Origin: a virus
Taxonomy: Duplodnaviria > Caudoviricetes
Length of the DNA stretch: 64,000 bases
Reading direction: 5' to 3' (one strand)
Virus record (IMG/VR): IMGVR_UViG_3300011242_000003
Span: 82,795 to 146,794 of that record
Part shown: positions 313 through 54,023 of the stretch, piece by piece
Position numbering within the stretch: the stretch's first letter is position 1
Layout of the letters: each line of letters starts with the position of its first letter
The notes under the pieces: generated by a model
Seen by the model: only the letters and a program-made list of their open reading frames with translations
What the model was told of the DNA's origin: nothing
The model's database searches: none
Made by a program: the position numbers and the translations under genes

Positions 313-386
313 GAATAAATTCGCAATTTTAAAAGGGAATACTTCTCTTTTAAATAAATCAATAGAATAAAATATTAAAAATAGTG

Positions 387-415
387 TTGACAATATATAG
401 AATCAGTGGTAATAT
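387..415 (+). promoter_or_regulatory. sigma-A-type promoter
   Basis: TTGACA-N17-TAATAT with TG extension; box B upstream. Confidence 0.7.
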
Positions 416-440
416 TAATATTGTAAGGGAGATGATGAAA

Positions 441-902
441 ATGAGTAGAATTAAAATCTCAATGAATCAAAGCAGTAGTGGATGGAATACACTTATGAAA
501 AAATACTATATAAGCTTTCAAGTAACAAAAGATAATGAAGAGTTTTATCATGTATTTTTAAATCATGGGAAATTTAATGAAGAAGATACTGTGTTTATCA
601 GTCTTTTTAAGTTGGCAGATGAAGAATTCTTAATAGAAAACAATATTGATTATATAGTTGATAAAGACAATAATATAATACCAATTGGCATTATTGATTT
701 TCAACAACAGGATAAGAGATGTTGTGAAGATGTGTTTCGATGTATTGTTACAAGTAAAGATGAATTGTATAAATGTAATGAAATTATAGACAATATAGTT
801 AAGGCAATTAAGATAAAATATAAAAGTGAAAAATTCATAGATATGTTTAATACAAGCAAACATAATTCAATTAATTTAGTTAAAGAAATAGGCTTAGAGT
901 AA
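441..902 (+). CDS. hypothetical protein
   Basis: ORF 384..902; likely start at ATG 441 after AGGGAG. Confidence 0.7.
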   Translation: MSRIKISMNQSSSGWNTLMKKYYISFQVTKDNEEFYHVFLNHGKFNEEDTVFISLFKLADEEFLIENNIDYIVDKDNNIIPIGIIDFQQQDKRCCEDVFRCIVTSKDELYKCNEIIDNIVKAIKIKYKSEKFIDMFNTSKHNSINLVKEIGLE

Positions 903-989
903 TAACTAATTACACAAAAGATAAACCTCTTTTGAGGTAAGTTAAATCAATAAATAAATATGTACTAATATAAAGCATATAGAGGTGAA

Positions 990-1373
990 ATGATGATATC
1001 AAAAATAATATGGAAAATCATGAGACATTTTGAAGATAAGTTAACTGTATATATAATTCAAGACGAGTATAAAAATAACAGAATTTTTATTCCAAATAAA
1101 AAACAAAGTGAATGGAAAATATCTTATGTGGAAAAAACAAATTATGGAGTAGAGATATCTGGTAATATGTTATATGATGATTTTATATATAAAATTATAC
1201 CTATGAAACCATATAATTTTTATAATACATACCCCGATAAAGAAAATAATTCAGTTTATAAACTATATGGGAAATTAAGAGAACAGTATAAACCAAATGC
1301 AAAAGAATGTATTAATATGGTTTCAAATTTTCTATTTTTTATTATAGGTTTAATAATAGGAATTATTTTTTAA
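990..1373 (+). CDS. hypothetical protein with C-terminal TM helix
   Basis: RBS GAGGTG; hydrophobic C-terminus FLFFIIGLIIGIIF. Confidence 0.7.
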   Translation: MMISKIIWKIMRHFEDKLTVYIIQDEYKNNRIFIPNKKQSEWKISYVEKTNYGVEISGNMLYDDFIYKIIPMKPYNFYNTYPDKENNSVYKLYGKLREQYKPNAKECINMVSNFLFFIIGLIIGIIF

Positions 1374-1459
1374 TAATCAAATAAAACAAATATTTTAAAA
1401 GGATAATATATTAAATTTAAGGAGAAAATATGGATTTAATCGTGGGAGAGTGAGATTAT

Positions 1460-50796: not shown

Positions 50797-50913
50797 AATA
50801 TTTTACTTATTTTAAATCATATTAATTATTTTAAATTATAATCATACAAATACTAGTTTAAGTTTAAAATATATTCCAATTAATTTTATATAACTAATAT
50901 ATTAAATACTATT

Positions 50914-51267
50914 TTATTCTAGGTGTTTACCAATAGACTCATCAATAGACTTTACTGCTAGGTTTCTTAATTCATCAATTTGTGCTTTAGTTACATAAGG
51001 AATCTTTTCAACTATTAATTTAGTAAATTCTTCTGCTTTATCACCAACTAATTCTCCAAGTCTAAATCTTTCCTCAATAACTTTTGCTAAGTCTATTGCT
51101 AATTTCTTATTTGCCTCATACTCATGAACTCCTATTTCAGCTTTTTTCTTTTCTATTAAAGTAGATATATATTCACCAACTAACTTTGCTAATGCAGGTA
51201 TTACTATTGCTAAAATAGCCACCAATGCTGTTCCTAAAATTGATAATATTTGATTTATTATTTCCAT
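50914..51267 (-). CDS. holin (LL-H-like)
   Basis: N-terminal TM; lysis-module position; VIEE...KAEEF...AV pattern. Confidence 0.65.
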   Translation of the reverse strand: MEIINQILSILGTALVAILAIVIPALAKLVGEYISTLIEKKKAEIGVHEYEANKKLAIDLAKVIEERFRLGELVGDKAEEFTKLIVEKIPYVTKAQIDELRNLAVKSIDESIGKHLE

Positions 51268-51428
51268 TATTTATTCCTCCTTAAATTTTGATAAAATAAA
51301 AGTATACATAAGTTTACTATGTTTACATATGTATACTTACTATAATTTGTAAATTAAAATGTTTCTTTTAATTGGATTATGTTTTAATATTTTGGTTAAA
51401 GTGGTTCACAATATCCTTCTATTATGCA

Positions 51429-52973
51429 TTAACCAAGCTTAGTGATTATAAATGTGCCTTGCATTGTTGGAGTTGTACCTCCAACTATTACATAAATTTT
51501 TATTATATCCCCTTGATTAAGTTCCATAGTGCGTACCAAATCAACTGTTTTTGTATGCGTTCCAACTCTTGATGAAGTTTCATCATATTTGTAATAATTA
51601 AGATTATTAACAACTAACCTTATTGTTATATCTGCATTTTCTGTTGTTACAACCTTATCTGAAAATAGGATTGAATATAACCCATATTTATTTATTGTTA
51701 TGGTTGAATTAGGCATGTCAAAATCAATTAAATTCGTATCATCAACAACACTATTAAATTTAAATATAGATTGAATGTTACTTGTTAATTGGGTAGGAAT
51801 TGTTTCCTCAATTTTGGTATATCTATTTTCAATTATTGCACCTTCATTAATAACACCTTCTTTTTCATATAAAATACCACATATGTTTAATATATAAGAG
51901 GATGAATCTACATTTTTTGTAGGTTGATTTGTTATTCTAACCTTATGTCTTCCAAATGGCACTTTATAGGTTACAAAACCTCTCGAGTTGCTTGTTAATG
52001 AATAAGTGTCTACTAATGGTTGGTCTACACCATCAATAGTACAAATAAACTGCCCATTTGAAGTATGCTCTCTATATAATATAGAAAAATCACCACCTAT
52101 AAATTCAGTTTCTATATATTTATTGGTTTGGTTTATGAATATATATTTACCATTCGTATAAGCGTTTGAAATACCTTCTGAAGCACCAGATGTAAAAACT
52201 TTAAAAGCATCTAAACCACTCAATAGATTATATATTTTTGTTGGTGATTTAATAAATTGTTTGGGTGTAAAATAATCCTTAAATAATTCAGCTATATAAT
52301 TTTGACCTAATGCATTTGGATGTGTGCCATCATACATCATTGATGATTGGTCTATGATACCTTTTGTTGCATCATCAAGCATTTTTGTATATAAATCAAA
52401 TACACCTACGTTATATTTTTTTGCAACTTCGATTGAAGCATTATTGTAAATTCCTAAATTTTCTTGATAAGTAGAACCTATAAAAAATGGATTTGATGTT
52501 CTTAATATTATATCTCTATGTCCTTGTGCTAAAATTTCTTGTATAATCATATTATAACAATTTCTATATTCATCTAAAGTTAACGAATTGCCACCGCTTG
52601 AGTCATTTAATGCTGAACATATTATAACTAAATCGGGGTCGTGTATAAGTACGTCGCTATATACTCTTTGCCACATTTGTTTTATGTTATTACCACCAAT
52701 ACCCGCATTAACCACAGTCACCAAGTTAGGATATAAACTTTCAAGCCATCCTTGCAATATCCCTACATGATTAGGTTGTCCTCCTGTGTGTTCATCTATT
52801 TGAGCGGTTGTACTATCTCCTAAAAATACAACTGTTGCAGGTTCTCCATTTTTTAATTTAGATATAAATTTATTAGTATGAAACGTAACCTTTCCTGCCA
52901 ATTGTTCATTAATCCCCACTATATCTTCTTTGTTTTTCTCATGTTCTTTTATTAAATTATTTACTGTACTCAT
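51429..52973 (-). CDS. SGNH/GDSL hydrolase with C-terminal beta-sandwich domains
   Basis: FLGDSTT; NAGIGG; ALND; DGTHPN. Confidence 0.88.
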   Translation of the reverse strand: MSTVNNLIKEHEKNKEDIVGINEQLAGKVTFHTNKFISKLKNGEPATVVFLGDSTTAQIDEHTGGQPNHVGILQGWLESLYPNLVTVVNAGIGGNNIKQMWQRVYSDVLIHDPDLVIICSALNDSSGGNSLTLDEYRNCYNMIIQEILAQGHRDIILRTSNPFFIGSTYQENLGIYNNASIEVAKKYNVGVFDLYTKMLDDATKGIIDQSSMMYDGTHPNALGQNYIAELFKDYFTPKQFIKSPTKIYNLLSGLDAFKVFTSGASEGISNAYTNGKYIFINQTNKYIETEFIGGDFSILYREHTSNGQFICTIDGVDQPLVDTYSLTSNSRGFVTYKVPFGRHKVRITNQPTKNVDSSSYILNICGILYEKEGVINEGAIIENRYTKIEETIPTQLTSNIQSIFKFNSVVDDTNLIDFDMPNSTITINKYGLYSILFSDKVVTTENADITIRLVVNNLNYYKYDETSSRVGTHTKTVDLVRTMELNQGDIIKIYVIVGGTTPTMQGTFIITKLG

Positions 52974-53036
52974 TCATTTATTACCTCCTTTTCATATTAA
53001 ACTAACCATTAAAATCCATGATTTAACATAATTAAT

Positions 53037-53870
53037 TTAATATTTTACTTTTAAGTGATTAAGCACTTGTTGGGCAGTTTCATTTCTATCTTTGCCACTA
53101 AACAGCTTATCGTATTTAAATTTGCCTTCAAGACTTCCACCAACCGCAAAAATAGACTTGCCATCAACTAATGATTTTCTATACTCTTGGTAGTCTATCA
53201 CAATACAATCTTCACCTTTACTATTTAATATCATAGCAAAATATTCAGCACATGATTTATCTGCTTCAGCACCATTATTATAAATAACGATATTTCTATG
53301 CATTTCTACTTGTGGTTTTTGTTCTACTGGTTTTAGAGTGGTTAAATCGACTCTATTATCAATTCCATTAGCTATAGCTCTAGCAATTTTCTCAACACCT
53401 AGTTTTTTATATAAATCTGCATCAGGTTGTTGAACAAAACAAACTTCAATTATCATACTAGGTGCATTAACATCACAAGTTTCTCCTAAGTCTGTTCTGG
53501 GTTTAATACCTCTATTAACAAATCCCAATGCTTTTAAATTATTTAATATTTTATTTCCTACATCAATGGTTAGTTTCGTATTCGGATATACACATATCTC
53601 TGAACCTTTTGCCCCTATTGCTGAATTGAGATGTATACTATAAAACATCTTTGGTTTTGTTTTATTTGATAAATTAATTCCATAACTCAATTCTTGTGGA
53701 TAAGTATAGCTTTCTGGTGGTGTGCAATTTACCATGTTATAATAAGGTGATAATAATTCAGCAACCCTCTTATCTATTTTTCTATCTTCTGTCAATTCAT
53801 TTAATCCATGTCTATCACTTGCTCCTGTTGATGCTTTGGTGTGTCCACCTCTATGGCATAAAGTTTCCAT
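53037..53870 (-). CDS. endolysin, N-acetylmuramoyl-L-alanine amidase (Amidase_3)
   Basis: RGGH; LNE; SIHLNS; IIEVCF; C-terminal GKDRNETA cell-wall-binding motif. Confidence 0.9.
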   Translation of the reverse strand: METLCHRGGHTKASTGASDRHGLNELTEDRKIDKRVAELLSPYYNMVNCTPPESYTYPQELSYGINLSNKTKPKMFYSIHLNSAIGAKGSEICVYPNTKLTIDVGNKILNNLKALGFVNRGIKPRTDLGETCDVNAPSMIIEVCFVQQPDADLYKKLGVEKIARAIANGIDNRVDLTTLKPVEQKPQVEMHRNIVIYNNGAEADKSCAEYFAMILNSKGEDCIVIDYQEYRKSLVDGKSIFAVGGSLEGKFKYDKLFSGKDRNETAQQVLNHLKVKY

Positions 53871-54023
53871 TATATCTTCCTCCTATTTTATATAATTTAT
53901 ATTTTTTCATTATAAAAAGAGTGAATTATATTTCAAATCCACTCCTTGTATAAAATCTTGTTTTTAATTGATTTATTTAATATATTTATTTTTGTTAGTT
54001 CACAATATAATTCTAATGTGATG

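Follow-up and report, generated by a model that had tools for sequence, protein, structure and literature searches.

The final 64 kb of a 146.8-kb virus contig from IMG/VR, which has 27% G+C and an estimated completeness of 79%, are here called the window. They carry many copies of a short palindrome, TAAAW-N6-WTTTA, at the boundaries of accessory genes. The palindrome keeps a strict spacing, is placed at gene junctions, is polar, is conserved throughout a phage family with arms that switch between clades, and coincides with the junctions of genome mosaics. We assign a probability of about one half to the reading that the copies are dyad sites on double-stranded DNA, recognized by a protein, that act as fixed crossover joints, probably of the lox/dif kind, and whose unique centers would limit exchange to the same joint in another phage. 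The binding of a protein, the mechanism of exchange, and exchange as the selected function are what we infer from the sequences. As judged from its gene content, the contig belongs to an SPbeta-like siphovirus of a low-G+C Firmicute.

A Palindrome with Strict Spacing at Gene Junctions

The relaxed pattern TAAAW-N6-WTTTA was present 24 times in the window, compared to 9.0 +/- 2.8 times in 100 dinucleotide shuffles, none of which reached 24. With exact arms (TAAAA-Nk-TTTTA), a spacer of k = 6 gave 14 copies in the window and 28 in the whole contig, while all other values of k from 0 to 14 gave 0–4 copies in the window and 2–7 in the genome. This peak, present at k = 6 alone, confirmed the repeated motif that an earlier note on this DNA had described.

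Non-coding positions, with at most a stop codon overlapped, were occupied by 21 of the 24 window copies (binomial p 2.5e-15, with the 14% non-coding share of the genome as base rate). The earlier note had placed all of its 22 copies at gene junctions. Of the 24 counted here, the copy at 39612 lies in a gene end and those at 41431 and 57799 lie deep within genes. All copies are listed below in window coordinates, together with one near match. RBS stands for ribosome-binding site, +4 is the fourth base past the right arm, and the box is the ATATTAAA element treated further below.

316..331, + strand: junction palindrome TAAAT-N6-TTTTA, follows gene 49-312; non-coding, G at +4
1382..1397, + strand: junction palindrome with exact arms, followed by 9 nt, then ATATTAAA box, RBS, and ATG
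2280..2295, + strand: junction palindrome, TAA serves as stop codon of gene 1866-2282
3233..3248, + strand: junction palindrome, TAA is the stop codon of 2918-3235; ATATTAAA box at +9
4182..4197, + strand: one-base variant TAAAG-N6-TTTTA, TAA is the stop codon of 3288-4184; outside the TAAAW pattern
5810..5825, + strand: junction palindrome, stop codon of 5402-5812; upstream edge of the radical-SAM two-gene block
7055..7070, + strand: junction palindrome TAAAA-N6-ATTTA, stop codon of the radical-SAM gene 6173-7057; downstream edge of the shared block
10336..10351, + strand: junction palindrome, last copy ahead of the replication operon
22241..22256, + strand: junction palindrome, first copy past the replication operon; ATATTAAA box at +10
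25263..25278, + strand: junction palindrome immediately ahead of an RBS
25977..25992, + strand: junction palindrome, box at +9
27259..27274, + strand: junction palindrome, box at +16
28576..28591, + strand: junction palindrome, stop codon of 28372-28578; box at +10
29095..29110, + strand: junction palindrome, stop codon of 28894-29097; followed by the box, a TTGCAA-N17-TATTAT promoter, another box, and the RBS of the ribonucleotide reductase operon
33500..33515, + strand: junction palindrome, stop codon of 33233-33502; box at +9
35715..35730, + strand: junction palindrome immediately ahead of an RBS
36955..36970, + strand: junction palindrome TAAAA-N6-ATTTA, stop codon of 36385-36957; RBS 6 nt downstream
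39612..39627, + strand: palindrome within the final 36 nt of gene 39247-39648; box at +9
41431..41446, no strand assigned: pattern match deep within gene 40526-41812, probably chance
42034..42049, + strand: junction palindrome ahead of the gyrB/gyrA block; box at +9
47499..47514, no strand assigned: palindrome in the gap where the early (+) and late (-) blocks converge
51355..51370, - strand: junction palindrome downstream of the SGNH/GDSL esterase gene 51429-52973
53010..53025, - strand: junction palindrome between the amidase gene (53037-53870) and the esterase gene
53951..53966, - strand: junction palindrome between a gene for a 779-aa baseplate-like protein and the amidase gene
57799..57814, no strand assigned: pattern match deep within tail gene 56626-59268, probably chance

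According to our own gene calls, the TAA of the left arm is the in-frame stop codon of the upstream gene at eight positions (2280, 3233, 5810, 7055, 28576, 29095, 33500, and 36955). Ten stop-codon copies had been claimed. The copy at 42034 can be added if the open reading frame 41842-42036 is real, and the one at 4182 is the TAAAG variant that does not fit the claimed pattern, which gives a total of 8–10. The left half of the site overlaps gene ends, and the site typically sits between the stop codon of one block and the RBS or promoter box of the next. The blocks delimited by palindromes contain 1–5 genes, many of them with their own promoter-like box, and range from 0.5 to 4.4 kb; the gene number and the lower size limit agreed with the earlier description, which had set the upper limit at 1.7 kb. 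The 12-kb replication operon between 10336 and 22241 contained no copy; the earlier note had likewise seen none at junctions within the SSB-to-ERCC4 operon.

In the non-coding copies of the plus-strand block, base 6 of the spacer was a purine in 17 of 17 cases and the base at +4 was G in 17 of 17, with a background of 16% G. The mirror-image C at -4 was found in only 5 of these 17 copies. The site polarity proposed before was reproduced, and part of it is accounted for by the neighboring TAAAATATTAAA box. The invariant length of each arm is 5 bp, with 1–3 further outer positions that are semi-conserved, more strongly so on the right arm. This symmetric extension past the 16-mer consists of C at -4 and G at +4 in this genome and of T-Y-T and A-R-A at +/-4 to 6 in SPbeta. 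Together, polarity and outer positions define a two-fold symmetric site of about 24 bp with a better right half. All centers were distinct among the 53 relaxed copies of the genome, in agreement with the claim that no two spacers are alike, a result that is not significant alone, since about one collision is expected by chance. Inverted arms around an asymmetric center of 6–8 bp are the layout of lox, FRT, and dif-type sites, and the palindrome has this layout, with strict 6-bp spacing and unique centers.

Breakpoints of Related Phages Map to the Palindromes

We retrieved 51 related loci by means of the radical-SAM protein encoded at 6173-7057, and closer relatives were sought via YomM homologs of 77%–81% identity. 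The contigs obtained with YomM align with the window at the yomM gene only, and for this reason breakpoints in the window's own lineage were mapped at gene level.

Among close relatives in four clades, stretches of shared sequence ended in site windows 13–29 times more often than expected from the share of sequence, compared to 2–6 times for other intergenic DNA; these and the following breakpoint counts are drawn from related genomes and are not independent events. When SPbeta was compared to eight GenBank relatives, 114 of 367 distinct ends were located within 2% of the sequence, with peaks at -2 to 0 and at +16 to +17. A breakpoint was present at 80%–95% of the junctions with a site in four of five pooled groups and at 50% in clade C, as compared to 23%–52% of the junctions without a site. 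For SPbeta alone, the respective numbers were 9 of 9 and 12 of 25 (p 0.006). The breakpoints of gene gain, loss, and replacement in the relatives thus lie at the sites, which upheld the view that the sites delimit exchangeable blocks. The proposal of crossover scars inside the 6-bp spacer did not hold: the breakpoints are located at the outer borders of the 16-mer, whose center is usually kept.

The same 16-mer including its center was found with up to five unrelated left flanks and four unrelated right flanks, and all four combinations occurred. At one SPbeta joint, nine phages showed eight flank combinations. Four-way combinations of flanks require a crossover inside the shared 16–20 bp. In clade A1 the centers showed no divergence at all (0/1710 positions), as compared to 3.2% in the mostly coding flanks, and centers diverged no faster than flanks. 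When one flank was shared and the other was not, the 16-mer was identical in 51 context pairs and different in 41 (41/92).

Several blocks illustrate this arrangement. The block at 5861-7057, which encodes a 95-aa protein and the radical-SAM protein, was the only block common to the 20-kb loci of eight relatives, and its limits coincide with the copies at 5810 and 7055. A palindrome was present within 75 nt after the radical-SAM homolog in three of the eight relatives. In the SPbeta group, a slot that holds yoqY, Gad1, or Gad2, depending on the phage, is flanked by two palindrome copies, and the esterase and amidase lysis genes of the window each have copies on both sides.

The radical-SAM protein (294 aa) and its 95-aa partner were also among the few genes common to all five metagenomic relatives compared. 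The pair sits amid fast-changing accessory genes, and no SPbeta homolog of it was found.

The Palindrome Is Conserved in SPbeta-like Phages and Switches Arms Between Clades

Comparison of the available sequences indicates that the palindrome characterizes the entire family of SPbeta-like phages. In SPbeta, we counted 34 copies, compared to a mean of 1.8 at other spacings, and outer positions there stretch the site to about 28 bp. Exact-type copies numbered 33 in genome G005 and 14 in genome G003. Other genomes carried TGAAA-N6-TTTCA (16 copies in G001, 23 in G004) or GAAA-N6-TTTC (36 copies in G002), with only 0–4 copies of the TAAAA type. The arm sequence followed the clades: TAAAA-N6-TTTTA in clade B and locus L025, TGAAA-N6-TTTCA in clades A1 and C, and nGAAA-N6-TTTCn in clade A2. 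Whole-genome counts showed that only one arm type is enriched per genome and that both arms change together between clades, with the same geometry. This genome and distant relatives had four centers in common, which is near chance level. Comparison of seven whole genomes revealed 11–15 shared proteins, none of which tracked the TAAAA or GAAA arms. In the literature that we searched, we found no description of the palindrome motif, and the literal motif matched only an unrelated paper on an archaeal regulator. As a separate observation, several junctions of clade A2 (L026-L036; for example, L028:17820-17850) have another palindrome of 12 bp, ACTATATATAGT, which precedes nGAAA-N6-TTTCn by about 12 nt.

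The position between a stop codon and an RBS in polycistronic arrays would also suit an element acting at the RNA level, i.e., a small intercistronic hairpin for translational coupling, processing, or termination, and a joint change of both arms would keep the pairing. The predicted folding energies were only 0 to -5.2 kcal/mol, though, with 2 of 10 copies that did not fold and several that folded no better than shuffled sequences. Furthermore, all copies of a genome share the arm sequence without covariation, inner and outer arm variants are not compensatory, and the loop is unconstrained save for one base. We consider a hairpin function highly improbable. The identical arms within a genome, the non-compensatory arm variants, and the weak or absent RNA hairpins point to a duplex DNA site that would be recognized sequence-specifically by a dimer.

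A promoter function, with the left arm as -35 and TAAAAT as -10 element 17 bp apart, was considered and dropped as a general explanation, since most copies in the relatives and in SPbeta lie directly ahead of the RBS with no -10 element.

The Neighboring Box and a Possible Role in Transcription

The dominant intergenic word of the genome is TAAAATATTAAA; we counted 88 instances of ATATTAAA in 16.7 kb of oriented intergenic DNA, where 10 were expected. The box is found either immediately before an RBS or at a distance of 5 nt ahead of canonical TTGACA-N17-TATAAT promoters, some of which have a box on each side (examples in the window are 3254-3266, 29116-29128, and 29176-29188). Ten window copies of the palindrome, including the one at 39612, have the box at +7 to +10, whereas about one such pairing is expected by chance genome-wide from the densities.

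In SPbeta, the tyrosine-recombinase-fold repressor MrpR/YopR uses SPBRE boxes as operators (PMC10516654). From seven MrpR-bound upstream regions of SPbeta we derived AATATGTATA plus CAAATACAAA as the SPBRE core. Relative to promoters and RBSs, SPBRE has the same layout in SPbeta as the TAAAATATTAAA box has here. A search by tblastn revealed no MrpR homolog; later, pairwise comparison of a positional candidate identified a distant MrpR/YopR homolog at 59231-60316 of the genome, after a YopQ homolog (25% identity, E 6e-7). The TAAAATATTAAA box is probably an operator or promoter box of the phage master repressor. We rejected the idea that the palindrome is the 15-bp SPBRE motif itself, since the sequences differ. 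Both are repeated intergenic elements of the same phage family, often just ahead of an RBS, and SPBRE is bound by a recombinase-fold protein; on the other hand, SPbeta has about 10 SPBRE elements as compared to 34 palindromes, and the positional equivalent of SPBRE here is the TAAAATATTAAA box.

The main alternative, a serious one although we consider it less probable than crossover joints, was already raised in the earlier note: the palindrome would be an operator-like or architectural docking site of a dimeric phage DNA-binding protein for early-gene expression. Exchange would then be a by-product of its position at module boundaries and of the short conserved stretch that it offers to phage recombination proteins. 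Helix-turn-helix dimers classically bind sites of such a 5-6-5 geometry, in which 11 bp separate the half-sites; examples are the operators of CRP and phage 434, with inverted half-sites of 4–6 bp spaced by one helical turn. The switch of both arms together between clades, the polarity that tracks gene direction, the constant phasing of 13 non-coding copies relative to the TAAAATATTAAA box, and the position beside SPBRE at aimR and yosX of SPbeta all fit such a site. So do the many breakpoints at junctions that lack a site, and the PeSL cassettes of T4-type phages are regulatory repeats able to mediate shuffling (PMC2839356).

Other results fit a docking site less well. Most copies of the relatives lie directly between stop codon and RBS with no promoter-like element alongside. 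The centers are conserved at least as well as the coding flanks, which is unexpected for the free spacer of an operator. Repeated four-way reassortment needs a crossover within about 16–20 bp, which would be very short for general homologous recombination. There was no small DNA-binding protein among the 11–15 proteins common to the genomes compared. Finally, chromatin affinity purification sequencing of MrpR is reported to have given ten peaks only, all at SPBRE (PMC10516654).

Candidate Recombinases

The earlier note had put forward the recombinase encoded at 48386-49390 as a candidate enzyme for the sites.

48386..49390, - strand: YomM ortholog of 334 aa with a tyrosine-recombinase fold of Cre/Xer size; candidate enzyme, assigned by Pfam and 52% identity to SPbeta YomM

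YomM is the best-conserved protein between this phage and SPbeta and has hundreds of close homologs. The family retains R182, H284, K287, H311, and Y321. An AlphaFold2 model (pLDDT 86) gave XerA, Cre, and Tn1549 integrase as the best fold matches (template modeling score of about 0.65 for Cre and Tn1549 Int), while the integron integrase IntI4 ranked 46th among the fold matches. Despite its promising conservation, we did not retain YomM as the protein of the site, on account of a clade B without detectable YomM and of a contig (L084) with YomM and without the site.

The yomM gene itself behaves as a transferable module and has no flanking palindromes: the region 48386-49431 of the window is an island with 75% nucleotide identity to L084, L086, and L088, and in these contigs both flanks of the gene are unrelated to the window. 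A small-gene array on L084 (15149-19158) has a junction motif of its own after the stop codons, TA(A/G)TTCGnAATaTGAAtATT..., of which some copies form perfect 8-bp stems with compensatory changes. It looks like a hairpin element, unlike the palindrome.

A canonical Xer-like tyrosine recombinase of 318 aa is encoded at 55822-56778 of the genome, outside the window, with the RhxxR, H, and Y residues intact (XerA/XerD E ~1e-22). Its gene lies in the lysogeny operon, where SPbeta has yopP, and precedes the genes for the YopQ and MrpR homologs. The protein could be an integrase or a second candidate enzyme for the junction sites.

The earlier note had interpreted the palindromes as a candidate integron-like system. 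In such a system, the recombinase at 48386-49390 would cut out individual cassettes in circular form and insert them at the sites, which would be crossover scars. The small accessory blocks bounded by sites, the coinciding breakpoints of relatives, the presence of a gene for a tyrosine-recombinase fold in the window, and the structural match to Tn1549 integrase, which tolerates unlike overlaps, speak for this interpretation. Integron attC sites are imperfect inverted repeats of 57–141 bp that are recombined as folded single strands and travel with the cassette, and one integrase with attI and Pc stands at the head of the array. The palindromes share with them the position at the boundaries of cassettes in arrays of small accessory genes. 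In contrast to attC, the conserved site is 16 bp long, or about 24–28 bp with the outer positions, and folds weakly. An IntI/attI/Pc head was not seen here; the sole recombinase-fold gene of the window is the yomM ortholog in the late/lysis block, and its presence does not track the sites. The blocks hold 1–5 genes, and many have a promoter-like box of their own. The same center stays in place while both neighbors change, which fits fixed addresses and not cassettes that carry their sites. The lysine that YomM has at the second catalytic arginine is a further argument against its role as the cassette-capturing enzyme. We concluded that the integron analogy, which failed for each defining feature that we tested, is very improbable, and the assignment of the YomM ortholog as the enzyme was not sustained.

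The Palindromes as Proposed Crossover Joints

In the reading that we prefer, a paired protein would recognize the two-fold symmetric duplex site, and two related phages in one cell would exchange DNA exactly at the copy with the same center. Exchange at copies with the same center would allow whole blocks to be swapped without homology of the flanks. Among the blocks exchanged in this way would be, in the window, those with accessory genes, the lysis genes, and the radical-SAM pair and, in SPbeta relatives, the slot with the anti-defense genes Gad1/Gad2. The chemistry would most likely be that of a simple tyrosine recombinase on a lox/dif-like site with inverted arms around a 6-bp overlap. Unlike centers would forbid deletion between copies within one genome.

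More tentatively, SPbeta-like phages, SPbeta among them, may hold an array of 30–50 address-coded sites with identical arms and unique 6-bp overlaps. A simple tyrosine recombinase of the phage (YomM, the Xer-like protein encoded in the lysogeny operon, or the two acting together) might use this array to swap blocks, including anti-defense genes and endolysins, between co-resident relatives without flanking homology or self-deletion. Recombinase-mediated cassette exchange would then have a natural counterpart.

Several results weigh against crossover joints. Five invariant bp per arm are short for a tyrosine recombinase and typical of a helix-turn-helix operator; the arms of tyrosine recombinase sites have about 11–13 bp. 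The TAAAATATTAAA box lies at a fixed 7–10 nt past 13 non-coding copies of the genome, which hints at a role in transcription, and module boundaries could be marked by sites for regulatory reasons. Breakpoints at 23%–52% of the junctions without a site imply that the site is not required for mosaicism, the 41 differing context pairs imply that a shared center is not always kept, and the non-independence of the breakpoint counts has to be considered as well. With regard to the enzyme, lysine replaces the second catalytic arginine throughout the YomM subfamily. YomM was not detectable in the clade-B genome G003, which keeps TAAAA sites, and L084, with a 77%-identical YomM, has one exact palindrome in 21 kb (no enrichment) and a different junction motif.

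Comparison to Known Systems

The pdif sites, or dif modules, of Acinetobacter plasmids are used by XerC/XerD (PMC6449649). As in that system, many short sites with inverted arms and a 6-bp center are scattered in accessory DNA and flank small modules in varied contexts, and the enzyme is presumed to be a simple tyrosine recombinase of the Xer type. Different from pdif, the palindromes belong to a phage, in which they occupy nearly all accessory gene junctions, their arms are unrelated to dif with only 5 invariant bp each, every copy has its own center that is kept in place in relatives, and the enzyme may be encoded by the phage.

With heterospecific lox and FRT sites (Cre, FLP), only sites with the same center recombine, and a segment between unlike sites can be exchanged and not deleted. 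Identical arms with different centers (6–8 bp in lox/FRT) are a common feature of these sites and the palindromes. Heterospecific lox/FRT sites are in engineered use, whereas here the array of 30–50 addresses in one genome would be a natural one.

The PeSL of T4-type phages are promoter-plus-terminator cassettes, whose long similarity allows homologous recombination between copies and the formation of mini-circles (PMC2839356, PMC4122927). Both PeSL and the palindromes are repeated intergenic motifs in regions of non-essential genes, at which insertions, deletions, and replacements between close relatives end. Different copies of the palindrome share 5 + 5 bp only, and the 16-mer has neither a sigma-70-type -35/-10 pair nor a stable stem-loop; the promoter-like boxes are separate.

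Gene Content of the Source Phage

Up to about 47.3 kb, the window has its early and replication genes, on the plus strand; the lysis and tail genes, on the minus strand, start at about 48 kb. The genes of the window encode DNA polymerase III alpha with an intein, a class II ribonucleotide reductase, and GyrB, as well as a YomG-like tail protein, a tape-measure protein, and an Amidase_3 endolysin. The SPbeta homologs YonO, YonJ, YorK, YorL, YosS, YopQ, and YomM are encoded elsewhere on the contig. A megablast search of GenBank phages with 20 kb gave no match, and no related loci were found with the 148-aa protein encoded at 26792-27238.

The intein in the DNA polymerase III alpha gene (16975-21258) has a LAGLIDADG-like insert (Pfam Intein_splicing, Hint, LAGLIDADG_3). 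The class II ribonucleotide reductase (29418-31976) is fused to an N-terminal glutaredoxin and ATP-cone. A Holliday-junction resolvase of the RusA family is encoded at 4305-4880 among the accessory blocks bounded by palindromes.

Implications for SPbeta-like Phages

Mosaic joints of phages are usually ascribed to rare illegitimate events followed by selection. Here, a defined and conserved DNA site is found at the joints of a whole family, which spans from Bacillus phages to phages of gut Firmicutes with 27% G+C. If the palindromes are dedicated crossover points, they would explain the clean exchange of accessory, lysis, and anti-defense genes. They would also provide a function for the recombinase-fold genes yomM and yopP of SPbeta, for which we found no described function, and the family would possess a natural set of orthogonal recombination addresses.

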